Assembly (NCBI RefSeq): GCF_029227855.1
Contig: NZ_CP074356.1
Strand: one strand, 5' to 3'
Length of the DNA stretch: 64,000 bases
From: Escherichia coli
Lineage (GTDB): Bacteria; Pseudomonadota; Gammaproteobacteria; Enterobacterales; Enterobacteriaceae
The translations under genes and the position numbers were made by a program. The notes under the pieces were generated by a model. It ran no database searches. It saw only the letters and a program-made list of their open reading frames with translations, and was not told the DNA's origin. Shown in pieces: positions 1-23,024 of this stretch (position 1 is its first letter; each line of letters starts with the position of its first letter).

Positions 1-18
1 TCACAGTACCGACCTGAT

Positions 19-672
19 ATGCCGTTTTGGCGATTACAAGGCGACGGATTCTGGCAATTACACAATGCCGAGCTTTGCTCAACAGCAGGGAGCAGCCGAC
101 AACCGCCAGTGAAGGAACTGAACGAATACCACGTTGCAGGCGGTTTCGATGAACAGCACTACGCCCTGGTAACCGGCAATAAAAAACTCATCAATACTCT
201 GGCGCAACAGATACTCGAAGCGCACTTCACCGAGAGTATTCAGGAAGAAATTGCTGACGAGCTGGGTTTTGATCTCCAGCAAATCCGTAAACAGCGCGAC
301 CCGTTATTTCGCAAAAATGTATTACGCGCTTATAACTACCAGTGCGCGATATGTGGCTTTAATATGCGCCACGACGACACCACCGTCGCGCTGGAAGCGG
401 CGCATATAAAATGGAAACAGCACGGCGGCCCTTGTGAAATCCCCAATGGTCTGGCGCTTTGCGCAATACACCATAAAGCCTTTGATAAAGGATCGATTGG
501 CCTGGATGAAAATATGCGGGTACTGGTCTCGGATGCGGTAAACGGCGGAGGGATCGTTGAGAGATTATTCTGGGATTTTGACGGGAAAACTATTGCGTTG
601 CCACAGGTGCGTAAAAATTACCCTTTTGAGGGGTTTGTGGAGTGGCATCGAAAAGAGGTTTTTAGGGGGTGA
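19..672 (+). CDS. HNH (His-Me finger) endonuclease-domain protein; possibly 5'-partial, since the frame is open from position 1
   Basis: Translation carries a CxxC...H...N...H pattern (YQCAICGF ... EAAHIKW ... NGLALCAIHHKAFDKG). No in-frame stop between position 1 and the ATG at 19, so the N-terminus may lie outside the window. Confidence 0.6.
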   Translation: MPFWRLQGDGFWQLHNAELCSTAGSSRQPPVKELNEYHVAGGFDEQHYALVTGNKKLINTLAQQILEAHFTESIQEEIADELGFDLQQIRKQRDPLFRKNVLRAYNYQCAICGFNMRHDDTTVALEAAHIKWKQHGGPCEIPNGLALCAIHHKAFDKGSIGLDENMRVLVSDAVNGGGIVERLFWDFDGKTIALPQVRKNYPFEGFVEWHRKEVFRG

Positions 673-984
673 GGTAGCCATTATATATCTTTCACCTAGG
701 ATTTTAAATGTAATAGATAAAGTATTTTCTGACACCGAAAGTAGTATTTATGAGTACATAGCCACAAATCAATTTTAAAATCTCAATATAAAATACGTTT
801 ACAAATATTCTAGTCAGAGTAAATATATATTCATTATAAGAGAATCCAATTATTAACCAATCGAAATTACAAATTAAAAAACAATTGGCATGTTGAATTG
901 TACACTAATTTATATACATAGTAAATTTACATCTATTCATGATATAATTATCGTGATATCAATTCATTAATCAGGAAAATCATA

Positions 985-1287
985 ATGGAATTGTTAAATA
1001 CTTATGATGATAAAGAAACAGCTGAAATATTTTTTGAAAAAATAGACGGAGAGAAAAGATTAGCAAGTGAGAGAGATGCTACAGAAACAGTCTATAACCT
1101 CTTCGGGCAACCAACATGGAAAAACTTTTATCTTCTTGATATGTTTAACCTAAAAGAGTTACAAGGGATTATAGAGTGTAGAAAAAATGGACAGCCGTTC
1201 GACCAGGAACGACACAGGGAAATAATAAAAATGCTTGAATATGCAGCAAAATCGTTTGACCTAATTATTCCTGCACATTGGCGATAA
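985..1287 (+). CDS. hypothetical small protein (100 aa), convergent with the Res-like gene
   Basis: ORF with ATG start preceded by a very AT-rich putative promoter region (672..984); no recognisable motifs. Confidence 0.4.
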   Translation: MELLNTYDDKETAEIFFEKIDGEKRLASERDATETVYNLFGQPTWKNFYLLDMFNLKELQGIIECRKNGQPFDQERHREIIKMLEYAAKSFDLIIPAHWR

Positions 1288-1290
1288 TAT

Positions 1291-1321
1291 CTGTTCCATA
1301 TCTCACAGAGATATGGAACAG
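1291..1321. terminator. perfect 14-bp inverted repeat between convergent genes; likely bidirectional intrinsic terminator
   Basis: ctgttccatatctc / aca loop / gagatatggaacag read directly; sits between the stop of the + strand ORF (1287) and the stop of the minus-strand Res-like gene (1334). Confidence 0.5.
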
Positions 1322-1333
1322 AATCATAATTAT

Positions 1334-4300
1334 TTACTCGCTAACCATCTTACTGAATAACTTCTCCAGATAAACGGGGCCTGTATCCTCAATAAAAAGC
1401 ACATTTCTGGCTTCCAGATTTTCTTTTGAGTCAGGTACGTTTACTAAGTCAACATAACAAGTTTCAGAAACAATAAATGCACTTAATGATAAGTTATCAT
1501 CCGATAATTTATGTTCAAGATTCTTAATTTCTTTATATAATCCGAACTTCGGATCATCAAGATTAAGATTGCGAATGCCTTTTGGATCAATAAGACTTAG
1601 CCATTGTTTACCACTTTTATCATCGACTAACCACAATAAGAAATCCGGATAAAAATTACCCGCAGTAGCAAAGCCCAGGCCTTTATTTTTAGAATCCGCA
1701 TTTCTTAGCAGATATAAACTTTTATCACCAATAATTTTCTGCCCTTTTGTCGAATCAACAAAAGACTGAAGATCCTGAACAAAAGTAATCTCGCTTGGCG
1801 CACCAAGTGCTGCCGGTCGCATTTTTAGCGGTATATTGGCATTTTTTTCAATCGAAAGAAGCGGGTAATAGAGATGTTTATCAAAGGTAATAGCAACCAT
1901 CCCGGATGCACTCCAGGATTTTGCTTTACCGATTTCGCCGTCGATGACCAATTGTTGTAATTGTTCCAGCCGACTGGCATAAGCCAACCCATCATCAGTT
2001 TCTTCGATCTCGAAATGGTACATTTTGATCATACCAGGATCATCTTCTTTCACCTGCGTGACTTCATAAAACTGACCTTCATAAGCATTTTTCAAGGTGT
2101 TGTAAAAGCGATCAGTATAATCAGTCAGCAGACGAAGCATAATATCTTCCTGCTTAGCAATATCTGCATATTGCTTAATCTCAAGCTCTGAAGCTGGAAT
2201 CAAAAGGGTATACCAACTATTTCCGATCTTTGTCTTACCGGTACAAAAGTCGATCAAACGTTGTTTATCCACACGTAAATTTGACCAGCCGCGTTGTAGT
2301 TTATAATTCTGAATGGCGAGATAAAGCCGATCAAAATCAAATGCACTAATGATTTTATAATCTAACTTCGCTTCATTGCGCACGTTAACCGGAGTATTGT
2401 CCCCTTTTCTGCTGGTATCAATCGACTCAAGTTTCGGGTATAAGTCCAGCTTAATATGCGGCTGCTTAATTTTCCCCTGAAAATCAGCAGGAACTTCATA
2501 CAATTCGGGAAAATAGACACGTTTAAAGCCGAGTCTTTGATTATCTTTATAACCATCTTTAAGCTTAAGTGTTTTAAGCCTGGTTGCTGGCATATTTGGC
2601 CGAGTTTCAAAATTCAGCTCAAGGATCTCGTCACTTGGCGTAATCCCTTCATCTTCCAGGTATTGTTTAAAGGTTGCCATGTAATCGGCACGTACACCGA
2701 ATACATTCAGTGTCTCTAATTTTTCCAGATGCAACCCTTTCGGACGCTCACCGGGTGTACTGCGTTTCAAAGAATAATTGCGACCTTTAAGGCGTACGCC
2801 ACGACCAAATAACTGAATGATCTGTGAACCTTCTCCACGGCCCATATTGAGCAATCCCATCGTTGAGACGCGCCAACTGCTCCAGCCTTCAGTAAATTTT
2901 CGCGAGCCGATCAAAATATGTAGTCGCGAGTCTTTGTCATTTAACGTATGAAAGAGTGACTTTGCAAAATCATCTCTCTGATAATCAAATGTCGTATCCT
3001 CTTCACACATTTTGTAAAGAGACGGTGCATCACCAATATTGATAAGGCCAAACGGTTCGGCCTCACCAACCTGTAATGCCAGTTCACCTTTACTGCCTAT
3101 TAAATTCAGAACTCGCAGTCGCTGACCAGAGTGAGTGGTGTTAAACAAGCGAGAAAGAATATCTGCGTAGATATCTTCCGGAGCGTTCATTAGTGCAGTA
3201 AAGCGATTTTCAAAAATGTTACGCTCTTTGGTATCGAGGATTCGCGCTTTATTTTTAATGAGATCGTTAATCCACGCTTTTGCCTGCGTTTCGTGGTTTA
3301 AAAACCATGCTAAAAAACGCAATACTGCGTGAATGTCTGAATCTTCACCACTTACCGTATTACCGACAAAAACCCACAGCGGTTTTTCGATATTAAATTC
3401 ACTTAATTTTTCTTTATTCTTATTGAATAAATATTGTTGCTGATAAAAGCTGAGCAAACACGCGGTAAAATACTCATACCGACGCTCATCTTTTTTATCC
3501 TCTTCAGGATTAAGGTTAAGAATCAGTGATTCTTTACCATAACCATCCTCATAGAAGAATTTATAGGAGTAATCGAACAGAATCGATTTTCCATAGACCT
3601 CTCGCGTCGCCTGAATACGCGCATCTCGTTTTTCTTCGCTGGTTAATGCTATTTGCGCTAACTCTTCTTCGTTCAGTTTACCTAAGGCCGTTGTTTCAAA
3701 AAGCAGCTTTGCTTTTTTCTTCTGAATTTCTGTTTCAACTGCCTCAACATTATTGCCACCGGCTACTGCCTGGCCAAAAGTTGCTGAATATTCAAACGCA
3801 AATCCGTCACGTGTTAATTTGTCACGACGGCGCATCCAGGCACCAGCAGCACTTCCGGTGCCTTTATGCCCTTCATCAATCAGAACCAGATTGTTGCCTT
3901 CAAATGCCTCAACGGCAACAGTTTTGTCACCCATTTCATCGGCAAGTTTATTGATATCAATAACTTCAATCGTGCCTTTGAAGGGCGCAGATTTACTCTT
4001 ATCGAATAACTGGTATTGGGTAAATCCTGAGTTTTCCAGCTCATCTAAATGTTGCTTCGACAGGCGTTCATCCGGCGTAAGCAGGATGATTTTATCCGGG
4101 TAATGGTGGGTATTACCGTTCTGGAAATAATGTAAATATTGCAAAATATTGACATGCAATAGCAGTGTTTTACCCGAACCGGTAGCGTTCCAGTATGCAA
4201 GTTTATTCAAGTCATCTAGAATGTATGATTTGAACTGATTAGCCCGGTCTTTTGCTGTTTTATCATTTTCAGCATTGTATGCTGCCAGCTCGTTATTTAG

Positions 4301-4714
4301 CCCATCGAGTAATTGCTGTTTACGATTGAAGTACCAGTCCAGGTAGATCTCGGTAAACAGAAGCGACAAGTACTGAAAATATTTCATATTCAGCACGGTG
4401 TCTTCTTTGCGATTACGGTGCTCAGTTATCTGCTGCCAGTGCTGTACGATATTGAGATCGTAACGACGCAGTTCATCGAGATCGATAAGATCGACCTCGA
4501 ATAAATAGTTACTCAGCTCATGGAAGAACAAGCTTTGGCCATCTTCATGGATGCCTTCAAAGCGATCTTCACCTAACCGATTTTTTAAACCTTGCAATGT
4601 GCCATCTTTAAAAAAATGGAACATAAAGCGGTTCAAAACCAGTTGCTTATGAAAGCTCAGTTTGCTGTTTGTCTCTTTTTTAACAGCTTTACCGGTGGTC
4701 GGTTTTTTAGCCAT
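1334..4714 (-). CDS. Type III restriction Res-like protein: superfamily-2 helicase with C-terminal PD-(D/E)xK nuclease motif (1126 aa)
   Basis: Walker A ATGSGKT, motif II LVLIDEGH, motif III SAT (EYSATFGQ), motif VI QLFGRGVRL; C-terminal NFYPDFLLWLV ... LSLIDPKG fits PD...DxK. ATG at 4714 lies 2 nt after the upstream gene's stop, with a GGAGGAGG Shine-Dalgarno inside that gene's 3' end. Confidence 0.8.
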   Translation of the reverse strand: MAKKPTTGKAVKKETNSKLSFHKQLVLNRFMFHFFKDGTLQGLKNRLGEDRFEGIHEDGQSLFFHELSNYLFEVDLIDLDELRRYDLNIVQHWQQITEHRNRKEDTVLNMKYFQYLSLLFTEIYLDWYFNRKQQLLDGLNNELAAYNAENDKTAKDRANQFKSYILDDLNKLAYWNATGSGKTLLLHVNILQYLHYFQNGNTHHYPDKIILLTPDERLSKQHLDELENSGFTQYQLFDKSKSAPFKGTIEVIDINKLADEMGDKTVAVEAFEGNNLVLIDEGHKGTGSAAGAWMRRRDKLTRDGFAFEYSATFGQAVAGGNNVEAVETEIQKKKAKLLFETTALGKLNEEELAQIALTSEEKRDARIQATREVYGKSILFDYSYKFFYEDGYGKESLILNLNPEEDKKDERRYEYFTACLLSFYQQQYLFNKNKEKLSEFNIEKPLWVFVGNTVSGEDSDIHAVLRFLAWFLNHETQAKAWINDLIKNKARILDTKERNIFENRFTALMNAPEDIYADILSRLFNTTHSGQRLRVLNLIGSKGELALQVGEAEPFGLINIGDAPSLYKMCEEDTTFDYQRDDFAKSLFHTLNDKDSRLHILIGSRKFTEGWSSWRVSTMGLLNMGRGEGSQIIQLFGRGVRLKGRNYSLKRSTPGERPKGLHLEKLETLNVFGVRADYMATFKQYLEDEGITPSDEILELNFETRPNMPATRLKTLKLKDGYKDNQRLGFKRVYFPELYEVPADFQGKIKQPHIKLDLYPKLESIDTSRKGDNTPVNVRNEAKLDYKIISAFDFDRLYLAIQNYKLQRGWSNLRVDKQRLIDFCTGKTKIGNSWYTLLIPASELEIKQYADIAKQEDIMLRLLTDYTDRFYNTLKNAYEGQFYEVTQVKEDDPGMIKMYHFEIEETDDGLAYASRLEQLQQLVIDGEIGKAKSWSASGMVAITFDKHLYYPLLSIEKNANIPLKMRPAALGAPSEITFVQDLQSFVDSTKGQKIIGDKSLYLLRNADSKNKGLGFATAGNFYPDFLLWLVDDKSGKQWLSLIDPKGIRNLNLDDPKFGLYKEIKNLEHKLSDDNLSLSAFIVSETCYVDLVNVPDSKENLEARNVLFIEDTGPVYLEKLFSKMVSE

Positions 4715-4716
4715 TC

Positions 4717-6513
4717 TTAAACCTCCTCCGCAAACATCAGGTTCAAGAATTCAGGTTCGATCTGGCGGATTTTCAGGCTACGAACAATCTCGCCGTCTTC
4801 TTCATCAACAGTAAAGGCGGTAGGTAAGTTATGATCGCCATTGATATAGATAACGTCGAACGTGTTTTCTTTTGCATATAAATCGAATCGGTTGGCATAT
4901 TTATTCAATTCTTCATAACCGATCTTGTCGCAATCGCGCCACAGAATAAGGGTACGCTCGCCTGTTGGTAGCATTCCTTCAACACGCACATAGCCACGTT
5001 CGATATTGGATTCGATGGATTTCACATGTAAACCAATGAGATAGTTGAAAGTTTCAACTAAATCGATGTTTTTACGCTCAGTGGCACCGGCGGAATCCGT
5101 CGCAATATCCATTTCGTAGTTAAATGGTTTTTTGAAATTATCAGTACTGAGTAGTGAACCTTTGCTTTCTGTTTCAAGCATATATTTTATTAAATACTCA
5201 TTTGCTACTGATTCATTCACTGTATCAAAAAGATCTTTTATTTCTTTTTGTTGTTCAAATCGAAGGCTATTTAATACATCTTCGTAACTTTCTATTTTCA
5301 TAACTTTAAGTATATGAGATGAGCCTGTCGTTGAATCCATAGCTTTACCATCTTTCCAATTGCTACTGAATATAACTTTTCTCAACCTGCTTAAAGTTAC
5401 ATTTTGTGCATACTCCCCCTGTTCAACAAGTATATATTTCCTTGAACCCGCATCCTTACGATTCAACTCTATGACTGAGTGGCCACTTGTTCCTGAACCA
5501 GCAAAAAAATCTAATATTATCTCATTTTTATTATGAGATGCACTCCCAATTAAATAATTATATAAAGAAGTTGAGTGACAATAAGGAAAATCAATTCCAA
5601 GATGAGTTGTTTGAGTTTTTCCTTTTTTAGCATCCTGAATTATTGATGTTATTTGCTTTTTAGCGTCAGCATATAAATATGCTTTCTGTCTAGGTTGCGT
5701 TGTTTCATCAACACCAAATAGTATATCCCCCTTATCCATCATATCTTTTAATGTTTCTGGGGTACGAGAAAAACCATTTGGTGGCATAGCGCATGGTTTC
5801 CCGGTAACTGGATGAATTAATGGTATATAGAATTTCTTGTCAGTCCTTGGCTCTGGGGCACGGAGGCTGACACTCTGGTACACTCGACCTTTCTCATCGA
5901 TATATTTGTAAGCTTGTTCACCTCCAGTAAGTTTTTTATTCTTTGTTACCCAATCATAAAATTTTTTCTTTGCTTCACTGTTAATTACAGGATATTTATT
6001 CTTAATTAATTTTGCATATTCGAGTATTTCTAATACATTCTCATTTTTCTTATTAATAGAAATCATGTTCTTTGTAAAACAAGTAGTATATTCATGTTGA
6101 ATCGCAATGCCACTACCACCATTCATGGGATTGCGTTTATCCCAAATAATTGTCCCTGCATCGATAAGACCTAACTGTTTATTAATTAAATAAAGTCGCT
6201 CATATTCATTTTCATCAATATGACAAAAAAATACACCATTTTCACTGAGTAAATTTTTAACAAAAAGCAAACGGCTATCCATCATACTCAGCCAACTTGA
6301 ATGCTTAAAGCTATTTTTATATAAAAAACCACTAGTATCTGTGTTATATGGTGGATCTATATGGACACAATCAATTACGGAATTATATTTTTTCTTCAAA
6401 AGATTTAACGCTTGATAATTATCACCATTAATAAAAACGCCATCAACATTATCGTCAATATCATTGATACTATTTAATATTTTTTCCTTAGATCTCCGTT
6501 TAAATGAGATAAA
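4717..6513 (-). CDS. beta-class N6-adenine/N4-cytosine DNA methyltransferase (Mod-like); no canonical start, probably joined to the upstream ORF by a -1 frameshift
   Basis: Motif IV IDPPYN followed later by motif I LDFFAGSGTSG (order IV then I is beta class). The ORF track starts at a TTG (6399), but the frame is open upstream to 6513 and encodes a conserved-looking pre-motif segment (DGVFINGDNYQALNLL). No ATG/GTG between the stop at 6514..6516 and 6399. Confidence 0.75.
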   Translation of the reverse strand, partial: FISFKRRSKEKILNSINDIDDNVDGVFINGDNYQALNLLKKKYNSVIDCVHIDPPYNTDTSGFLYKNSFKHSSWLSMMDSRLLFVKNLLSENGVFFCHIDENEYERLYLINKQLGLIDAGTIIWDKRNPMNGGSGIAIQHEYTTCFTKNMISINKKNENVLEILEYAKLIKNKYPVINSEAKKKFYDWVTKNKKLTGGEQAYKYIDEKGRVYQSVSLRAPEPRTDKKFYIPLIHPVTGKPCAMPPNGFSRTPETLKDMMDKGDILFGVDETTQPRQKAYLYADAKKQITSIIQDAKKGKTQTTHLGIDFPYCHSTSLYNYLIGSASHNKNEIILDFFAGSGTSGHSVIELNRKDAGSRKYILVEQGEYAQNVTLSRLRKVIFSSNWKDGKAMDSTTGSSHILKVMKIESYEDVLNSLRFEQQKEIKDLFDTVNESVANEYLIKYMLETESKGSLLSTDNFKKPFNYEMDIATDSAGATERKNIDLVETFNYLIGLHVKSIESNIERGYVRVEGMLPTGERTLILWRDCDKIGYEELNKYANRFDLYAKENTFDVIYINGDHNLPTAFTVDEEDGEIVRSLKIRQIEPEFLNLMFAEEV

Positions 6514-7838
6514 TTAACTGTTGCAAACTTGAGCAACTCCACATCAGAGGTAGATGGCTTCTCATCTAAGATGCCTAATTCAATCCATTCTTGGACTATT
6601 TTTTCATTATTAATTATTTCACTGTAAAACTCTGAACTTATTTTGTCCATAGTAATATAGTAATTACTTGAAACAACAAACTTCTTCTTAGTCCAAAGTT
6701 TCTTCTGGAAATTCTCAATTTGTGCCAAAAATGCAATGAGTTCCAGCGCAACAGTACGCAAACATTGAATCATGCGCAATTGTTTCTCAATATTGGCAAA
6801 CACTTCTGCATTTTGCACATTATCGAGATTCATTACTTCATTTTTAATATAAAAATCCAGTTCGTTAGTTAAAAAACCACCGAGATCTTTATGAATAAAG
6901 TAGTCTGCTGTATTACGCTGGGTATAAGTTGTAAGATGACGCTCCAACTCTGTACGTGACGGATTTTTTTCTGTTGGCGCACGTTTAGCAAGATCAACCC
7001 AATGCTGTTGAACTGTTTTATCAGCCAGAATTGTTGAAATAGCGGACTGCACTAAAGCATCCTGCTTAGTGCCCTTTTTCATGGCCTTATATTCGAAGTG
7101 AATAACTAACTCTTCTGTTTCAACGAGTTTACCGTCAACCACAGATGAAGTTTTCACCACTTCTACTGGCTTATATTCTTGTTCGTACTCATCGCCTTCT
7201 TCATCAATTTTGGTACGAACATGCGGCTCAATAAGTACAAAGCAGCGATCTAATTCATTATCTTTACGGTTATCTTTTGCTGTGTCCGCTGCGAGCAATT
7301 TAAAGCTAACTTTACGACCCTCATCTAATTTAAATGAATAATTAGCAAAGTTTTCACCGCTTTTAATGTAGTACTGGTCCTTATTTGCCCAGTGCAACAT
7401 CACTTCTTCGCCAGAATAAGGGATGGCGTAGGTATTACCTTTATAACGGCGTTTGCTGATAAAATCGCCGTTGTCATAATAACGCGAAAAGAAAGTCAGC
7501 AGATGGGAAAATACTGCATTTTCATGCTCATTTGCTCCGGATGCCATAGCCGCCAGTTGCTTTTTAAGCTCCTGTACTTTCGGGCTATCAGCAGGGTCCA
7601 CACCCGCATCAGTTGCCGCTTTTATTGTCAGTTGCAACTGATGTTCTAATTCTGATTTATTGGCATTTCCTGCATCCGCCAGCGCAGACTGGATTTTGGC
7701 CTTCAGCTTATTATCCAGATAGTCGTTAATTTCATCAGCACGTGCATTTAAAATACGATAAATACCGAAATCCAGTTCTGGTCGATCAATCTGAAAAATT
7801 TCTTTTAGCTTCTTAACTAATTCGTTGTACTTACTCAT
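6474..7838 (-). CDS. uncharacterised protein (454 aa from ATG at 7838); possible N-terminal part of a fused methyltransferase
   Basis: Long ORF with no motifs I recognise. Lies 20 bp downstream of the SNF2 gene stop; its 3' end overlaps the open methyltransferase frame (6474..6513). Confidence 0.7.
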   Translation of the reverse strand: MSKYNELVKKLKEIFQIDRPELDFGIYRILNARADEINDYLDNKLKAKIQSALADAGNANKSELEHQLQLTIKAATDAGVDPADSPKVQELKKQLAAMASGANEHENAVFSHLLTFFSRYYDNGDFISKRRYKGNTYAIPYSGEEVMLHWANKDQYYIKSGENFANYSFKLDEGRKVSFKLLAADTAKDNRKDNELDRCFVLIEPHVRTKIDEEGDEYEQEYKPVEVVKTSSVVDGKLVETEELVIHFEYKAMKKGTKQDALVQSAISTILADKTVQQHWVDLAKRAPTEKNPSRTELERHLTTYTQRNTADYFIHKDLGGFLTNELDFYIKNEVMNLDNVQNAEVFANIEKQLRMIQCLRTVALELIAFLAQIENFQKKLWTKKKFVVSSNYYITMDKISSEFYSEIINNEKIVQEWIELGILDEKPSTSDVELLKFATVNLSHLNGDLRKKY

Positions 7839-7858
7839 TATTTTCTCTTTCAAATCAA

Positions 7859-16129: not shown

Positions 16130-18976
16130 TCAGAAAGTCACATTCAGCGTGGCCTGACCGTTATAACCTTCAGCGCTGCTGCCGCTGACACTGTGGGCAT
16201 AACCGGCCTGAACGCCCAGGGTGATATTTTCCCGGACACGGGCTTCCAGTCCGGCCTGCAGGTCCAGTGACGTGCCATTCCGGGACGGTGAGAACGTCAT
16301 GTTACTGCCGGCGGCGGCTGTCCCCATGCTCATGTCACCCCGGGAACTGAAGGTGCGGATAACAGAAGGCTGTACCCACCAGTTCACCGGCAGTTCACGC
16401 ACACGGTGTTTTGCACTGTCGCGCAGGGTGTCACGGGATGAGGTGCCTTCACCAAAGCTCATATCGTTGTGGCTGCCCAGACGGAAACCGGCACGCACAT
16501 GTTGTGCACTGCCATGCCCGAACTTCACATAACCGGCGTTATCCTGGCCGTCATCCAGGGAAAGTCCCTGCCAGGTATACTGCAGTTGTGGCTCCAGCAT
16601 CAGGTTGTCAGTGATACTGAAGGGCAGACCGGTTTCCAGTGAGCCCAGCCAGCCCCAGCCGCGGGCGCGGAAGTCGTTATTGTCCGATGACGCTTTCATG
16701 CTGTGGCGGGTTCCCTGTGCCACAATGTCAGCCCACAGGCCGGAGGACGTGTGTGTCAGATTCAGGTATCCGCCCAGGCTGCCGGCATCATCCCGGACCG
16801 TGCCGGCGCGGGAACCGTCATCATCCTTAACATCAACGGAAGAATGGCCTGCGGCACCATGCACCCCTGTCGTCAGAGACATACCGGCAACCTCTGTTCT
16901 GAGCAGGTCACCCTCCAGACGGACGAAGCCATAGCTGCCGCTGCTTTCCGGCGTGGCTCCACGGGCAATACCGCCGTTGTTATCGTGACCGAGATGACCG
17001 CCCTGAATGCTGAGACGGACGCTGTTATTTTCACCGTTTACACCGGTCTGATGGCTGCGGGAGCCTGCCAGAATCCGGTCATAGTCCATTGCCTGTGTCA
17101 GCATGGAGGCATACAGGGGGACTTCAGCACGATAAGCATTTTCACTGCGCAGGTACCAGTCTTCATCGCTGTCACGGTTCAGGGTGTAGTTAAAGGCGCC
17201 GGCCTGAAGCGGGCGACTCAGGGCAAATGCACCTTCTTCTGTGGTGGCGCCATTCTGTGCATCCACAACCCGGATACCCTGTCCGGAGGTTGCCACCCCG
17301 AGGTTACTGTTTCCGACATTTGTAAACGCAAGCCAGGTTTTGCCGGTTGCCTGACCACCATTAATCACCAGCTGGTCAGAGGTATTGCTGCCATCAAGGC
17401 GAACACGCATATTGATGGTGCCACCCTGACCGGTGAGGTTACTGGTGGTCAGTTTATGGAACGTTACCGGGGAGTCGCCTTTTGCAACAGCACGGCTCAG
17501 CGCGGCATCCGGTGTCGTCTGATTATCAAAGCGAATCTCCCCTGCGTTAACAATATCGCCGGTACTGACCACATCGCCATTCAGTACCATGCTGGCACCT
17601 TTACTGAGCTGTGTTCTGCCACTCAGACTTCCCCCGGCAGCCAGCGTCAGTGTTCCACGATGTCCGACAGTGGTGTTGCTGGCCAGTCCTCCGGCATTAA
17701 CCGTAAAGCTGCCGCCATTTTCCAGCAGCAGTCCGCTGGCCTGACCGGATGTGCCATCAATACTGAACTTACCGCTGGCATTGGTCCCCTCAACAGTGGC
17801 ACCACTGTCTGCAATCAGGGCACTACCGGATGTCATGGTGACATCTGTTGCCTTACCACCGGCAGACACTGCCAGGGTTCCGCCGTCATCCACCAGTGTT
17901 TTCCAGGCTGAATGGCCCTCCAGTACATCCAGGCGACCACCGGACTCCAGAACAACACCGTCAGCATTACCGTTTTCCACAGTGAAATTGCCCAGACGGT
18001 TGCTGCCGGTGACGGTTGCCGCCGTACTGGTGACCAGTGCGCCTCCCTGCTTCAGGGTGACATTCGTGGCTGTACCACCGGCGTTCACCTGCAGTTTGCC
18101 TTTCTGGTTAACGGTGGTGAAATCCGCCAGACCACCTTCCTTGACAATCTGCCAGCCGTCACTGTTTACAACCGTGTCAGAGGCTGTGCCTCCGTTGTGC
18201 ACATACTGGTAACCGCCATTCAGTGTGGTATCCAGCGCATGCCCGTGTACCGTCTGGTCGCCGCCGGCATAAACCACAGTGGTATTTGCTGTTCCTTCAG
18301 CAGCCACAATCTGACGACCATTTTCATTGATAGTGGTACGTACGGCATTTCCGCGAACAAACTGCCCGGTATCACCATTTTCTGCATCCGGTCCCCCTTC
18401 CGCGCCGGTATTCACAACCGTGTCGGTTGCCATTGCGCCGGATTTGACGGCCTGCCAGCCCTTCTCATTAATGACGGTACCCGTTGCAATCCCGCCTTCA
18501 TGTACCCACTGCTCACCGCCGTTCAGAGTGGTGTTCACTGCCTGCCCCTGAAGGCTCTGTCCGCCTCCGGCACTGATAACCGTGTCTGAAACGCTTCCTC
18601 CGGCATTCACTCTCTGAAGACCACCACCGGTGACAGTAGTGTTGTTGGCGATACCGCCATTTTGTATCCATTGTCCGCCGGTATTGGCCTCGTTATCCGG
18701 CCCATACTCCAGACCGGTACTGATGGTCATTCCGTTGGCCGTACCGAAGACAATCTGGTTGTCATGATTTGTCAGTGTTCCGCCGCTCACGGTTTCTCCC
18801 GCCTGTACGACCGTGTCAGCAGCCAGTACCGGGACTGACGTGACAGCAGCAAGAGACAGCGCAACCGCCACACCGGTGCGTTTTCCCCGTGAGCGCGCCA
18901 GTTCGGAAGCCACCACCAGGGTGCCCGTAATGTGATTCCATACCAGCCTGTAGCTGGTGTTCAGATGTCGTTTCAT
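16130..18976 (-). CDS. flu: antigen 43 (AIDA-I-type self-associating autotransporter adhesin)
   Basis: 948 aa; N-terminal extended signal peptide [15 protein letters not shown], repetitive beta-helix passenger, C-terminal beta-barrel ending …ATLNVTF. Confidence 0.9.
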
Positions 18977-19194
18977 CAGCTTTTCCTTACAGAGGGTGAA
19001 TAAAAAAGCCGGTACCCACAAATGTGGATACCGGCAGGTACAAAACAGCATGGTCAGATAAAGTGGTTTTTCCCGGACATAAATGCTTCCCCTCTCTCAT
19101 CCGCCAGAGAAGTATCAGTCCGTTGTGTGCAATTCCGTTCTGCATGATGAAGAGATTCAGCTGCCTTTTCGCAGGCCATTAACCACTATAAACG

Positions 19195-19230
19195 ATCGAT
19201 AGCAACGATCGATACCTGTTTTATCGATCG
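19195..19230. promoter_or_regulatory. three clustered GATC sites upstream of agn43 (Dam/OxyR phase-variation switch)
   Basis: GATC at 19195, 19208 and 19227 in the leader region of flu; the arrangement matches the known agn43 switch. Confidence 0.6.
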
Positions 19231-19347
19231 TTTTATTCTATTGATTACAAGGCGGTCACGCAAGAGAAACAGGAGGAGTATGAGGGGTTTGTGTCATGTT
19301 TTCAGTTGGTTAACGTAATGTTATCAGGCATTTCCCTGGCAGACTGT

Positions 19348-20220
19348 TCAGAAGAAAATCCAGTTCCATACAGCGCGGGCAACAGAGACCACCGTGTCAC
19401 GGACGGCACGCAGAACCGTACGGGCAACAGAGGCAACACAGACGCTCTCCGCCGTGTCAAATATCCGGTCCACCGCACCGGTAAACTGTTCACGGGCCTG
19501 AGCGCGGACAGATTCCGTGCGCAGCTCGTCCTGCAGGCGGGTCATCAGGGGACTGGCGGCATGGTCGGGAAGTGCTGTCATTAGCGCACTGACCAGCGTA
19601 TCCAGTTCCCAGCCGGTGCGGGCCGATACGGCAACAACCGGATGTACGGGCCGGAACAGCCGGAATACCGCATCTGTTTTCTCACGAATGTTCTGTGCCT
19701 GTGCGGGAGAAGGCTGAATGCCGGCCATATCCCATTCATGGCAGGGCTCCGTTTTGTCGGCCTGCGTCACCACAAACAGCACCTGCTGATGTCCCCGGTG
19801 CAGGATGTGTCGCCAGAAATACTCATCCACAGACAGGGCACGGTCATCGGCTTTAATCAGCCACAGTACCAGGTCAAGTTCAGGCAGAATGTCACGGTAC
19901 AGGGCTTCATACTCTGCATCCCTGTCCCGGCTCTCGCCCACCCCGGGCAGGTCAGTGATAATCATGCTGTGACCGTGGCCACTCAGACGGAAGCGCCGCA
20001 CTTCCCGGGTGCCGGCGTGAACATCACTGACCGGGGTGACCTCCCCCTGAAACAGTGCATTACAGAGTGAGGATTTACCGGCCCCGCTTTTACCCATAAT
20101 GCCAATCACGGGTTCGTGACTGGTGAGTTTGCGCAGATGTTCCAGGATGTGACGGGAAAGTGAGTAAGGCAGGGAGGGGAGCGGTTTTTCAATTGCCTCA
20201 ATGGCATCAGACGGATTCAT
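19348..20220 (-). CDS. YeeP/YfjP/YkfA-family putative GTPase
   Basis: P-loop GIMGKSGAGKSS and a downstream DLPG motif; start at MNPSDAIEA. Confidence 0.75.
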   Translation of the reverse strand: MNPSDAIEAIEKPLPSLPYSLSRHILEHLRKLTSHEPVIGIMGKSGAGKSSLCNALFQGEVTPVSDVHAGTREVRRFRLSGHGHSMIITDLPGVGESRDRDAEYEALYRDILPELDLVLWLIKADDRALSVDEYFWRHILHRGHQQVLFVVTQADKTEPCHEWDMAGIQPSPAQAQNIREKTDAVFRLFRPVHPVVAVSARTGWELDTLVSALMTALPDHAASPLMTRLQDELRTESVRAQAREQFTGAVDRIFDTAESVCVASVARTVLRAVRDTVVSVARAVWNWIFF

Positions 20221-20304
20221 ACATGTATTCCCGGTGAAAAAAGACAAAACCCCCGCACACCGGAAAGGTGGTGGGGGACTCACGGAGATAATATATGTCT
20301 GAAA

Positions 20305-21018
20305 TTATCTGGAATGTCGGTACCTTTTATACTCTTCAACAATCAGGTCATGCAGCATTTCGCCGGTACTGAGTCTTCTGACCCTCGATAATTCTTTGAG
20401 CTGCGCCCTGGTTTCTGCGTCAAGAAAAAACTGTACATTGACTTTATCTTCCTGCATTTTTTTGTACTTGCGCTGCGCCTTGGCCTTATTGAAACTGTTT
20501 CTGAAATTTTTTATATCGTCAGGTGAGGTGAGTGGACAGGTAACCCATATGTCAAATGAAAGGTGAATTGCGTGGTAAATATCAGCAGAACCAGGAAAAC
20601 TGGCCAGTTTTTCCAGTGCAATATTTTTTCCCTTCAAATAATTCCATGTCCATATGCATTCATGTTCGTTCTCCGGGAGGAGGTAACTGAAAGGACTCTT
20701 TGATTTAAATGCCCGCATCCATCTGTCTTTGGTCTGGATTATCCACTCATCCCGCAAATTCTTATCAGAAAGAATATCGAGAACTCTGAGTATTTGTCTG
20801 AACTGTGTCGATGAGTCCGACGGGAAGGCATTCCCTTCTAAATACTCTTCTTTAAGATACAGTTTATTCTTTTGAAGCAAGTCTGCGCTTATTTTTGTCC
20901 TGTTATTCTGGATAAACTGCATCAACAGATACCAGGAAAATAAGCATGCACGTTCACTGCCCGCGATCCAGGATATTTTTTCCAGGGGCACCAGGGAGGC
21001 CAGTGCCTTCAGACGCAT
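20305..21018 (-). CDS. hypothetical protein (237 aa)
   Basis: ORF only. Confidence 0.5.
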   Translation of the reverse strand: MRLKALASLVPLEKISWIAGSERACLFSWYLLMQFIQNNRTKISADLLQKNKLYLKEEYLEGNAFPSDSSTQFRQILRVLDILSDKNLRDEWIIQTKDRWMRAFKSKSPFSYLLPENEHECIWTWNYLKGKNIALEKLASFPGSADIYHAIHLSFDIWVTCPLTSPDDIKNFRNSFNKAKAQRKYKKMQEDKVNVQFFLDAETRAQLKELSRVRRLSTGEMLHDLIVEEYKRYRHSR

Positions 21019-22406
21019 ACCAGAAATGATTTGTTCAAGTTCAAAATCTGAAAGTGTGATGTTCAGATTTTCTCTGTTTTTTTTATGTAAGCGATAAAAC
21101 GTTCCGGGGGATCATAAACATTAAGGGGCAGTACGGAGATATTACGCTCTCCAAGATAATAAGAGTAATACGCATTTGTTCTTTCATTCATAACCTTATC
21201 CGACAAAATTTTCTGAACCATCCTCTTTCTCCGGTTGCTTAAAAATTAAACATAATAAGGTGATAATAACATGATAAAAAGAAGTTTATAATGGTATATT
21301 AAGGTGGTCAATAAAAAGGCAATCTGCGCGCTGTACAGTCATTCTGACAGGAAATGCAGGAGGAAGGGAAGGTAACCGGCTTCGTTATGCTGACAGGAAT
21401 ACCTGTTATCATGGAAGTGCACTCATGTGGCCGACGTAGCTTAAGAGGATGGAAGAGTGGAGACTGCAGACAGGGGGTATTGAAAGGTAAACATGTTTCG
21501 CCCGCCAGCTGCACCGGGGGCCAGCATCACTTTTTTTACGTTGTAACCCGGTATGCATTCCGGCTTTGATGATTACAGTCAGAGGGCAGCAGACTGACGT
21601 TATTTAACCGGACAGAAAAATTATGGACACTGAAATATCGTCTGTTAATACCTCGTTTGTCGGTGTGGTATTCCCTGTATTACCGGCGTCACCGATAAAG
21701 AGAGTTATAAACGCCAGAAAGGTACCTCCTTTATGCCGGGGAACACTTACGGAAAATGAAGTCTGAAAAGGAGCACAATGAAAAGAGGCGTGTCCCGTAA
21801 ATATAGGGGCAAATCCAAGGTGATACCAGAGGGCATTAAACTGTCGCCACGGATAAGAATATACAACATTTCTGATAACAAAACATCATAACGTGTTTCA
21901 GATATGTTCCGGCATCAGTCTGACGGATATTATTTCCCGGTAAAACAAACCGGCTACTGTAACGGTTAACTGTATCTGCATAAATTATTTATGATGAAAG
22001 AACAGTATTACGGATTCAAATATCATCCTGTTTGCATTCAGGCGGACATTCCCGGATGCCGGAAAGAATATCCTGCAGGCTGAGTGAGTCTCTTCCACAG
22101 TGCCGGGATCGCTGTCGCCACGTACATATTGTCACCAGGATGGGTATGTACCGCAGCATGCCATTTCTGGTGAATAACCGCACCTGCACATTCAGTCTGC
22201 TGAGAACCTGGCGTGTATCGGGCTGTAAAGAACATCCCTGTCCGTGGCTCCTCTGGTGGTGTTGCCTGCTCAGCAATGACAGGATGCCCTTAAGACGCCC
22301 GTCATGGCTCAGTATGATGACGACGAACACGCTCTGCAGGTGAGCATGCGGGGCCGGGAGCATCATCATTTCCGTATTTTGTCACACCTTCCGGAAGCAA
22401 CCGGCA

Positions 22407-23024
22407 TCAGTTGCGGCTATCGTCAACCGTTGTGCGGTATGCCAGGAGCACGTACTGATCCATCAGATCCGTCAGTGCTGCGCTCTGCCTCTGACGGTTG
22501 ATGATCCATTCCTCCAGCTCTTTTTCTGATTTCCGTTTCAGGTTCTCTTTCCAGTCTTCAAGGCTGTTTCCGGTCATTAAATCAAGCCAGCAAAGCCAGA
22601 CCAGTTTGAGGCGCAACTCCGTGCCACCAAACTGACGGAAGAGGCTGATCAGTTTATTTGCCAGAGAACGCTGCCTCAGACGTTCACATTCAGACAGGAG
22701 AATGCCTTCCAGCATCGGATGATGAACCAGCAGATGTTCACTGGTGCATAAATTCACAATCAGATCATCATCCAGGGGCGGCGTGGCCCGTTTGTCAGGG
22801 CCATAAATCAGCCGGTGCAGGCTCTGGGGTACGATGGCAATCTCCGGTTTTTCACCATTGAATGACACCCAACCGGGCGTCAGATTATGGAAGTAGTAGA
22901 TATTCGGATGACACACGCCCCAGGATACGGCGTGCCGGGTGAAGCCGGTCAGCCATTTCTGGTAGCTTTCGTGGAGCCATTCGTAGCGGGTCTGATACTG
23001 TTGTTTCATTTTCATATTCCTCAC
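22407..23024 (-). CDS. hypothetical protein (205 aa)
   Basis: ORF only. Confidence 0.5.
   Translation of the reverse strand: MRNMKMKQQYQTRYEWLHESYQKWLTGFTRHAVSWGVCHPNIYYFHNLTPGWVSFNGEKPEIAIVPQSLHRLIYGPDKRATPPLDDDLIVNLCTSEHLLVHHPMLEGILLSECERLRQRSLANKLISLFRQFGGTELRLKLVWLCWLDLMTGNSLEDWKENLKRKSEKELEEWIINRQRQSAALTDLMDQYVLLAYRTTVDDSRN

Follow-up and report, generated by a model that had tools for sequence, protein, structure and literature searches.

An EcoWI-type HNH gene, a conserved small gene facing methylation-based defence operons and a paired stem-loop at the distal border of the Escherichia coli leuX island

The window, meaning the whole 64,000-nt stretch of Escherichia coli DNA that was analysed (contig NZ_CP074356.1, assembly GCF_029227855.1), opens inside an HNH nuclease gene. 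This is followed by an AT-rich spacer, a small gene of an uncharacterised family (hereafter S), a perfect inverted repeat and, on the opposite strand, a cassette of three large genes that encode Res-like, Mod-like and SNF2 proteins (Table 1). The spacer contains an extended -10 promoter-like element, TGATATAAT, at 940-948, which was read from the sequence and is putative. The HNH gene adjoins nanS at the far edge of leuX, a defence hotspot of E. coli (PMC12707154), and a tRNA-Leu(CAA) gene is located at 58230-58314 of the window. Upstream of the HNH gene only a 105-nt HNH pseudogene remnant and a truncated nanS are found, followed by nanM, nanC and fim, and not the continuation of the defence segment that an earlier, sequence-only reading had expected beyond the window edge. 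A plasmid collection searched with 673-1340 returned only two partial E. coli matches.

Table 1. Features at the left end of the window and the basis of each assignment
Feature	Position	Strand	Basis
ecoWIR-like gene, 3' part (codons 68-290 + stop)	1..672	+	NF045808 full-profile match
Sulfur-binding domain (SBD), C-terminal half (residues 68-142)	1..225	+	5ZMO, 7CC9 and PADLOC alignments
HNH nuclease domain (residues 182-236)	343..507	+	Pfam HNH_2, E 1.1e-9
AT-rich spacer (~28% GC), two recombination junctions	673..984	.	Homology ends 675-677 (E. coli), starts 979 (Salmonella cassette)
Gene S, 100-aa acidic protein, uncharacterised family	985..1287	+	115 homologues, genomic context
Perfect inverted repeat, 15-bp arms, 3-nt loop	1290..1322 (arms 1290-1304, 1308-1322)	.	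Between two convergent stop codons
Res-like helicase/nuclease gene, 1126 aa	1334..4714	-	PADLOC REase_III PDLC03654, 2326 bits
Mod-like N6-adenine methyltransferase gene	4717..7853	-	PADLOC MTase_III PDLC03646
DrmD-like SNF2 helicase gene, 963 aa, first cassette gene	7859..10750	-	DISARM_DrmD_b, PADLOC DrmD

The HNH gene enters the window in frame 1, which is open from the first base to the stop codon at 670-672, and begins 201 nt upstream. The complete gene was read from strain E24377A (locus tag ECE24377A_RS25955), whose copy is identical to the window over 1-672, and all statements on the full-length 290-aa protein refer to that copy, the window itself holding only the last 223 codons. The sequence-only reading had recognised both the HNH signature, now a Pfam HNH_2 match, and a start outside the window; with the upstream sequence recovered the gene proves to be intact and not a fragment. 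The full protein scores 438.6 bits with NCBIfam NF045808 (PT-DNA_restrict), for which the cut-off is 180, and its residues 6-289 cover positions 2-284 of the 284 in the profile. The suggested DUF262/DUF1524 type was not borne out, the N-terminal domain being a sulfur-binding domain instead: residues 5-142 align with the SBD structures of ScoMcrA (5ZMO, E 6.3e-8) and SprMcrA (7CC9, E 5.6e-3), the PADLOC mREase_IV match spans residues 5-139, and the motifs HKP and MPFW align with HRP and YPFW of ScoMcrA. The HNH domain aligns with TagI (6GHS), with conservation of C182/C185 (CxxC), H202, N216 and H224. By identity and architecture, 1..672 is the end of an intact SBD-HNH enzyme of the EcoWI type.

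E. coli W encodes, at the same nanS-side locus, a protein that shares 286 of 290 residues (99%) with the HNH protein. No accession for EcoWI is listed in the supplement of PMC7461809, but the naming convention and the matching mass (33.4 kDa published, PMC7461809; 33.3 kDa computed here) make it very probable that the E. coli W protein is EcoWI. The published enzyme is a dimer that cuts GpsAAC/GpsTTC at N7/N6 with Mg2+, restricts dnd+ plasmids in vivo and works alone when cloned (PMC7461809). From these properties and the 99% identity, we infer that the window allele would likewise perform phosphorothioate (PT)-dependent cleavage and restrict dnd-modified DNA. The N-terminal domain would recognise PT links in foreign DNA and the HNH domain would cut nearby, with neither a partner nor a methylase required. 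Taken by itself the gene is nothing new, being a characterised enzyme type in a known E. coli defence hotspot.

In the cassette, the Res-like protein carries Pfam ResIII and DEAD matches. MTase_III PDLC03646 scores 2204 bits on the intact Mod protein of E24377A. In the window this gene has lost 1 nt from a homopolymer, which is T6 at 6480-6485 and T7 in the intact allele of E24377A, and falls into two ORFs of 560 and 459 aa; the cassette of the source strain is therefore probably switched off. The SNF2 protein matches NCBIfam DISARM_DrmD_b with 666.7 bits, below the cut-off of 950, and PADLOC DrmD with 663 bits.

The S protein (12.0 kDa, pI 5.0) is labelled a hypothetical protein in RefSeq, and no paper was found in a literature search on five RefSeq protein accessions of the locus. 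Its 115 homologues are nearly all about 100 aa long and align over their full length with 50-70% identity in more than 30 genera. Eleven residues are invariant and synonymous sites are saturated, the invariant positions standing beside saturated third codon positions (e.g., R25-D31, P96 and H98). The AlphaFold model is confident (pLDDT 96.4) and predicts a β-α-β-β arrangement followed by four helices, a fold for which the PDB offered no analogue. Family and fold libraries gave no significant sequence or structure match, and Pfam gave none even at E 10. A profile search of 1.84 billion representatives returned 78 small clusters only, in which no known domain was credibly fused to S; the sole long match (1510 aa, E 1e-4) was spread over four stretches. 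The conservation pattern shows S to be a protein under strong selection at the amino-acid level. Conservation as a DNA site, for example a recombination target, was rejected on the saturation of third codon positions even at invariant residues, and an origin as a phage gene on the presence of S in only two IMG/VR contigs. A role as CbtA-like toxin partner of the CbeA antitoxin encoded upstream in Aeromonas was also discarded: S has no CbtA match, and CbeA is absent from most loci. S is unlikely to be a recombination directionality factor, being adjacent to an integrase in a minority of loci, with no integrase near it in strain Q5.

S converges on the Res-like gene, as the sequence-only reading had stated, and the two stop codons are 46 nt apart. 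It is more than the flank of the cassette for which it had been taken: a single 9.8-kb alignment between E. coli and Salmonella runs from 979, 6 nt before the ATG of S, to 10752 at the ATG of the SNF2 gene, where the conserved block ends. S is therefore the fourth gene of the cassette, a mobile module that reads S -> <- Res-Mod-SNF2. The same arrangement, with a gap of 47-50 nt, recurs in nine of nine distinct loci from eight enterobacterial genera, which were chosen through homologues of Res and not through S; within E. coli, 183 of the 190 genomes with Res also carry S. Outside this module the convergent placement persists. Among 72 species-level S loci, 60 of 69 have a convergent gene downstream of S (median gap, 38 nt), and a methyltransferase-based system adjoins S in at least 60 of the 72 (at least 83%). 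The facing operons belong to at least seven types, including Type III-like, BREX types 1 and 3 and Hma. The S family is linked, tail-to-tail, to methyltransferase-based defence operons of many types in Gammaproteobacteria.

S nonetheless diverges faster than its neighbours (62-75% protein identity, vs. 89-93% for Res), and its tree follows host taxonomy and not system type, which disposes of co-evolution with any one type. Nor is S specific to SNF2-containing systems, for BREX type 1 loci (BrxL-PglZ-PglX) carry it too. Nearly identical S genes (80-87% at the nucleotide level) stand beside different systems, and where the cargo differs homology stops at the start and stop codons of S. This last observation is equally compatible with an anchor gene of a hotspot and with an accessory factor.

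What S does for these operons can be proposed only tentatively. It may be a generic accessory or regulatory factor of methylation-based defence that, for example, tempers or conditions the facing operon, an effect to which convergent transcription might contribute. Put more broadly, and with the same reserve, S could be an accessory protein that has so far escaped recognition and serves methylation-based immunity whatever the system, be it Type III-like R-M, BREX types 1 and 3, Hma or a relative of these. Such a protein might set the balance of methylation and restriction at establishment, or sense a common phage counter-measure, and the tail-to-tail placement together with the stem-loop of Enterobacterales would be part of its wiring to the operon. 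Cloned BREX type 1 systems work without an S-like gene, so S is not essential to them.

A role outside defence is conceivable at a similarly guarded level. S would then mark a hotspot for cargo, as an anchor gene or as part of the backbone of integrative islands; defence operons would be swapped in beside it by recombination, and S itself would serve the island, for instance in establishment, anti-restriction or maintenance. The host-like tree of S and its near-identical copies beside different systems suit this view, as do some 20 loci in which S is co-oriented with, and directly follows, backbone genes (DUF932/TIGR03299, a YqaJ-type exonuclease, Gp3-like, RadC or a P4-type integrase). In five enterobacterial loci S follows a P4-type integrase gene on the same strand, at a distance of 71-86 nt. 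A published island hotspot of Pseudomonas has a Ser/Thr kinase gene and a YqaJ-like gene as its borders (PMC12629846), and genes of both kinds also occur near S. In E. coli, however, the cargo separates S from the backbone, which is oppositely oriented, and Q5 has S and the cassette without backbone genes or integrase. The conserved E. coli/Salmonella block moreover holds S and the cassette in one piece, with its edge at the start codon of S. Across loci, variability is far greater among the genes upstream of S than in the class of system found downstream of it, and a cargo that is at least 83% methyltransferase-based is more uniform than expected of a generic hotspot. Either outcome would be of use. 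BREX, Hma and Type III-like systems are currently studied as fixed gene sets; if S modulates them, a shared regulatory or accessory layer has been missed by current annotation tools, and if S only anchors a hotspot, it would be a practical marker for large methylation-based defence operons in Gammaproteobacteria.

The inverted repeat between S and the Res-like gene had been described as a perfect 14-bp hairpin at 1291..1321; perfect it is, but its arms measure 15 bp. The predicted fold reaches -22.9 kcal/mol for the + strand and -24.1 kcal/mol for the - strand (z ~ -7), and none of 200 shuffled sequences folded as well. The sequence is unique in the window, with no match among 100 shuffles. 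Homologous hairpins occur in eight other enterobacterial genera, with 96.2% of cells paired and six of 16 pairs altered on both sides. The covariation score, to which about three independent lineages contribute, is 0.304; shuffles give 0.122 (0/500 attain the observed value), and slid controls do not exceed 0.153. The stem contains six G-C pairs out of 15 (40% GC). No U tract follows it on either strand, where the next 8 nt are AUCAUAAU (+) and UAUUAUCG (-), and the hairpin is therefore not a canonical terminator. A consensus terminator scan of 600-1500 found three other sites and did not call it, and Rfam found nothing in 1-1600 with permissive filters. On balance, and by a modest preference, the stem-loop is taken as a selected structure common to the two convergent transcripts, acting as a 3'-end-forming or stabilising hairpin or as a weak bidirectional terminator.

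Action of the palindrome at 1290-1322 as double-stranded DNA, whether bound by a protein dimer (perhaps of S) or used for recombination at the junction of the cassette, is distinctly less probable. The core CCATATCT..AGATATGG is invariant while the flanking arms change symmetrically, a pattern that a palindromic protein-binding site fits equally well, and the missing U tract points the same way. Single-sided changes favour neither strand consistently: in Q5 the change yields a G.U pair in the - strand RNA only, and in Cronobacter a U.G pair in the + strand RNA only. Against a DNA site, homology is continuous through the hairpin with no break there, and a position between convergent stop codons is the usual one for a terminator. 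Nor does a common DNA site accompany S, since elsewhere the S junction holds an unrelated hairpin or a canonical bidirectional terminator, or lacks a spacer altogether. In Aeromonas the junction is a textbook bidirectional terminator (AAAAGGCCGG-TTTC-CCGGCCTTTT), and many junctions, with gaps of 0-20 nt or overlapping stop regions, leave no room for a hairpin.

The sequence-only reading had treated the HNH nuclease and the R-M-like cassette as clustered members of a defence island. The island stands, in the form of the leuX hotspot, but the HNH gene is no part of the cassette. That the two form one multi-gene defence system running off the window edge is very unlikely, even though they adjoin each other and two diverged E. 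coli haplotypes have the HNH 3' part, S and the cassette adjacent. The HNH gene occurs in 2142 of 5426 E. coli genomes (~40%), only 183 of which also carry S and the helicase; in about 1950 it has other neighbours (in some strains McrBC plus type I, or P4-like elements, downstream), and most E. coli genomes cease to be homologous to the window at 675-677, 3-5 nt past its stop codon. In the 72 loci of other species an HNH homologue never adjoins S. GC content steps down at the boundary, from ~50% in the HNH gene to 28-40% in the cassette. In Q5, where the order is leuX / SNF2-Mod-Res <- -> S / truncated HNH, identity to the window is 89% for the HNH part and 98% for the cassette, which is intact beside a 5'-truncated HNH gene. 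The autonomy of cloned EcoWI (PMC7461809) also speaks against a partner. The HNH gene is a resident stand-alone anchor gene beside nanS, outside the neighbouring cassette. As a whole, the region is best understood (with a probability of roughly three in four) as three separate things side by side, the HNH gene, the S module and the stem-loop, at the distal border of the leuX genomic island. The idea that the 100-aa ORF arose by chance in AT-rich spacer DNA, to which the missing family annotation and the hypothetical-protein label might lend colour, is refuted by the conservation pattern, namely length and identity kept across more than 30 genera and invariant residues next to saturated synonymous sites, with the confident model also against it.

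Several characterised systems resemble parts of this locus. EcoWI (Lutz et al., 2020, PMC7461809; EcoWI-seq, PMC9521924) has the same two domains and the same 290-aa length as the HNH protein, the window and E. coli W alleles differing in four residues (G156R, H208Q, F286Y and G288V, window > W). ScoMcrA and SprMcrA, the type IV PT-dependent enzymes of Streptomyces (5ZMO, 5ZMM, 7CC9), share a homologous SBD, with H-(R/K)-P and PFW aligned, followed by an HNH domain. Their sequence similarity to the HNH protein is low (E 1e-7 to 6e-3), and ScoMcrA, at 561 aa, has extra domains where the HNH protein has 290 aa. Both Streptomyces enzymes cut at variable distances and need Mn2+ (PMC7461809).

The resemblance of the cassette to Type III R-M lies in the full-length matches of its Res-like and Mod-like proteins to REase_III and MTase_III. 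However, the conserved block of the cassette always includes an SNF2 gene and a convergent small gene, both of which are absent from classical Type III systems. With DISARM it shares only the DrmD-like SNF2 gene; DrmA, DrmB (DUF1998) and DrmC are all missing from the conserved block and the DrmD_b score is below its cut-off, and the cassette is thus Type III-like with extra genes and not DISARM.

The hairpin shares with bidirectional intrinsic terminators a stable stem-loop between convergent stop codons and a stem kept by compensatory changes. It differs from them in an AT-rich stem without flanking A and U tracts, which the scan left uncalled. S, finally, recalls the controller (C) proteins of R-M systems, which are likewise small and constant companions of restriction-modification genes. 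C proteins are helix-turn-helix regulators, encoded upstream of the nuclease gene and co-oriented with it. By contrast, S gives no helix-turn-helix match and is placed tail-to-tail at the 3' end of the operon that it faces.

The small protein S, encoded convergently with the Res-like gene, is the unexpected result of this analysis: it belongs to a Type III-like/SNF2 module and is found repeatedly at the 3' end of other operons (BREX, Hma and related ones). Both its 100-aa ORF and the facing 1126-aa gene, which ends at 1334, were confirmed. A search of 5.8 billion proteins returned 115 homologues, nearly all of about 100 aa and 50-70% identical, from Aeromonas, Vibrio, Shewanella, Pseudoalteromonas, Klebsiella, Salmonella, Marinomonas and others. 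Of the positions in an alignment of 35 members, 11 are invariant and 21 nearly so, among them the motif KRLASERD..T...YNLFG..TW. Third codon positions in 61 full-length genes are near maximal entropy, even at invariant residues, and the constraint therefore lies on the protein and not on the DNA. The AlphaFold model (pLDDT 96.4) comprises a β-α-β-β unit followed by four helices. No match to S was found in Pfam, NCBIfam, PADLOC or PHROGs, nor by sequence in the PDB; AFDB50 held family members only, BFVD nothing, and an exhaustive profile search gave only 78 small clusters, with no credible fusion. Conservation indicates that S is a real gene, whose protein is unnamed and strongly selected. Only 2 viral contigs carry it. 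A copy 100% identical to that of the window adjoins a 1126-aa Res-like gene on a 5.7-kb contig (USKA01000072.1) of a metagenome bin named 'uncultured Streptococcus sp. UMGS1794', most likely through bin contamination.

Features at the S locus and in compared genomes (window coordinates unless stated)
Feature	Position	Strand
HNH (PT-HNH) gene, start outside window	1-672 (stop codon 670-672)	+
Inverted repeat within HNH gene	358-370 / 399-411	
End of homology in most genomes	675-677	
Extended -10 element	940-948	
E. coli/Salmonella alignment	979-10752	
S	985-1287	+
Hairpin arms	1290-1304 / 1308-1322	
Res-like gene	1334-4714	-
Mod-like gene	4717-7853	-
Homopolymer in Mod gene	6480-6485	
DrmD-like SNF2 gene	7859-10750	-
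leuX	58230-58314	
Region of the HNH remnant, compared locus L001	13507-13700 of L001	opposite to HNH gene
Minimal leuX locus, strain Q5	12003-22983 of NZ_CP127255	

In E. coli, the Res-like gene is present in 190 genomes and S together with it in 183. Loci were also sampled through Res homologues, and not through S, in Salmonella, Yersinia, two Serratia species, Pectobacterium, Cronobacter, Pantoea, Enterobacter and Klebsiella; all nine contain a 100- or 101-aa gene convergent with Res and 47-50 nt beyond it. Alignment established homology to S for three of these genes; identity to S is 57-64% in the remaining six. E. coli and Salmonella match in a single alignment running from 6 nt before the S ATG to the SNF2 ATG, and Salmonella/Yersinia homology begins precisely at the S ATG. 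A module of 9.8 kb, S -> <- Res-Mod-SNF2, therefore has S as its fourth gene, and S diverges faster than its partners (protein identity 62-75% for S vs 89-93% for Res). A perfect extended -10 element, TGATATAAT, is located 37 nt 5' of the S start codon in a 28%-GC spacer, and a Shine-Dalgarno-like GGAA lies 8 nt ahead of the ATG. Homology to the modules of Salmonella and Yersinia leaves out this region, which suggests that the S promoter differs between hosts. In Yersinia, Serratia, Pectobacterium, Cronobacter and Pantoea, a P4-type integrase gene precedes S in the same orientation at a distance of 71-86 nt, giving small islands of the form int -> S -> <- Res-Mod-SNF2, with lptF/lptG adjoining in three of the five loci. 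S may be co-transcribed with the integrase in these islands.

The neighbourhood was surveyed across Gammaproteobacteria in 72 independent loci, one genome per species, by clustering the surrounding genes and annotating the clusters with PADLOC and NCBIfam. The gene after S converges on it at 60 of 69 loci, the median distance being 38 nt; some junctions have no gap at all, or ends overlapping by 13 nt. A methyltransferase-based system adjoins S in at least 60 of the 72 loci. Counted downstream of S unless marked, these are Type III-like Res/Mod, usually with SNF2 (12 loci), BREX type 3 (BrxA-PglZ-BrxHI-PglXI-BrxC; 11), Hma (9, of which 2 upstream), BREX type 1 (BrxL-PglZ-PglX; 6), BPTD_3080 nuclease with a Type III methylase (6), PLD-helicase with a DUF1156 methylase (3), other operons with a methylase (9, of which 2 upstream) and further BREX, DUF1156 or type II systems that were at first unclassified (4). 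Three Hma operons contain nested Septu genes, PtuA and PtuB, flanked by HmaB and the SNF2 gene HmaA, and in a Marinomonas locus S and HmaC are separated by a SMODS and S_4TM pair. Large methylation-based operons thus have small systems inserted inside or next to them.

The stop codons of S and the Res-like gene are separated by an inverted repeat that the sequence-only reading had described as a perfect 14-bp hairpin. It is perfect, although its arms are 15 bp long, one pair more, around a 3-nt loop. Its sequence is unique in the window and folds with -22.9 kcal/mol on the + strand and -24.1 on the - strand (z about -7). The stem is 40% GC, neither strand has a U tract, and the terminator scan did not list it. 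The hairpin is homologous across enterobacterial cassettes, with an invariant core, CCATATCT..AGATATGG, and outer arms of an E. coli (TCTGTT/AACAGA), a Yersinia (CCAGTA/TACTGG) or a Salmonella type (CTTGCC/GGCAAG). Pairing holds for 96.2% of cells in a set of 10 distinct sequences, and both sides have changed in 6 of 16 pairs; the covariation score, drawn from only about three lineages, is 0.304, vs 0.122 when shuffled (0 of 500 reach 0.304) and at most 0.153 in slid controls. Two single-sided changes produce G.U on opposite strands, so neither strand is favoured. While the repeat may be a palindromic protein-binding site, the most economical reading is a selected 3'-end hairpin common to both convergent transcripts. 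A covarying, conserved stem-loop accompanies S in Enterobacterales; other S junctions have unrelated hairpins, a textbook bidirectional terminator (Aeromonas) or no spacer.

The HNH gene on the other side of S is a stand-alone resident. It occurs in 2142 of 5426 complete E. coli genomes, only 183 of which have S and the helicase as well. Homology ends 3-5 nt past its stop codon in most genomes, and GC drops from about 50% to 28% at the gene boundary. Its neighbours vary: McrBC and a type I system lie downstream in E. coli W, and in O157:H7 the gene is preceded by Zorya II and followed by a P4-like element. The gene is therefore no partner of the cassette, and the idea that one defence segment continues through it beyond the window was wrong. 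E. coli Q5 has a minimal leuX locus consisting of tRNA-Leu, SNF2-Mod-Res <- -> S, a 5'-truncated PT-HNH gene and a truncated nanS, with no integrase and no island backbone; identity to the window is 89.4% in the HNH part and 95-98% in the spacer, S and Res.

In itself the HNH gene is ordinary and of an already known kind. Its frame is indeed open from base 1, and extension upstream through strain E24377A places the start 201 nt before the window, giving a 290-aa product of which residues 68-290 are encoded inside. This protein matches NCBIfam NF045808, "phosphorothioated DNA-binding restriction endonuclease," over the whole profile (438.6 bits vs a cut-off of 180), and the HNH domain was recovered as Pfam HNH_2 at residues 182-236. 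Over residues 5-142 the protein aligns with the sulfur-binding domain structures of ScoMcrA (5ZMO, E 6e-8) and SprMcrA, and alignment of the HNH part with TagI keeps the metal and catalytic residues. E. coli W encodes at the same position a 290-aa protein (286/290 identical), and the computed mass of 33.3 kDa compares with 33.4 kDa published for EcoWI (PMC7461809). EcoWI is a dimer that cuts GpsAAC/GpsTTC at N7/N6 with Mg2+ and restricts dnd+ plasmids in vivo (PMC7461809). Since the publications consulted give no accession for EcoWI, the link rests on naming convention and matching mass. A 13-nt inverted repeat (92%) within the gene, around its CxxC and His codons, is probably due to chance.

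The Mod gene of this strain is broken into ORFs of 560 and 459 aa (1040 aa in the intact methyltransferase) because one T was lost from a homopolymer, which is T6 in the window and T7 in E24377A and an IMG/VR contig. The T6 state could reflect phase variation or an inactivating mutation. Classical Type III Res requires Mod for activity, so the cassette is probably off here.

Window bases 1-1400 match E. coli chromosomes, with 100% identity in F9792, NCTC86 and others and one mismatch in E24377A. Upstream of the window, E24377A carries nanC, nanM, a 3'-truncated nanS and a 105-nt pseudogene remnant of another HNH endonuclease, followed by the PT-HNH gene, which therefore lies within a segment that has taken the place of the nanS end. 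Because the nan genes are upstream and leuX, a tRNA-Leu(CAA) gene, is inside the window, the HNH gene, S and the hairpin are placed at the distal edge of the leuX island, hotspot number 37 and the most heavily occupied defence hotspot of E. coli (PMC12707154). The earlier defence-island reading stands in general, but not as to the extent of the island or the link between HNH gene and cassette.

S could serve integrative islands as a hotspot anchor. Its tree tracks host taxonomy rather than system type, nucleotide homology between loci with different cargo is limited to the S coding region, and in about 20 loci the gene preceding S belongs to the island backbone (DUF932, YqaJ-type exonuclease, RadC) or encodes a P4-type integrase. 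Moreover, a kinase and a YqaJ-like gene bound a Pseudomonas island hotspot (PMC12629846), and genes of both kinds are found near S. A generic accessory factor of methylation-based defence nevertheless appears the better candidate, because the limits of the block shared by E. coli and Salmonella link S to the cassette, Q5 has both without backbone genes, the cargo next to S is consistent in type and the tail-to-tail arrangement is constant. In three Pseudomonas loci, the gene immediately upstream of S, on the other strand, encodes a 745-aa protein kinase, with BPTD_3080 nuclease/Type III methylase/SNF2 operons alongside. This kinase resembles MAD6 of MADS and PglW of BREX, scoring 180 bits against a cut-off of 460.
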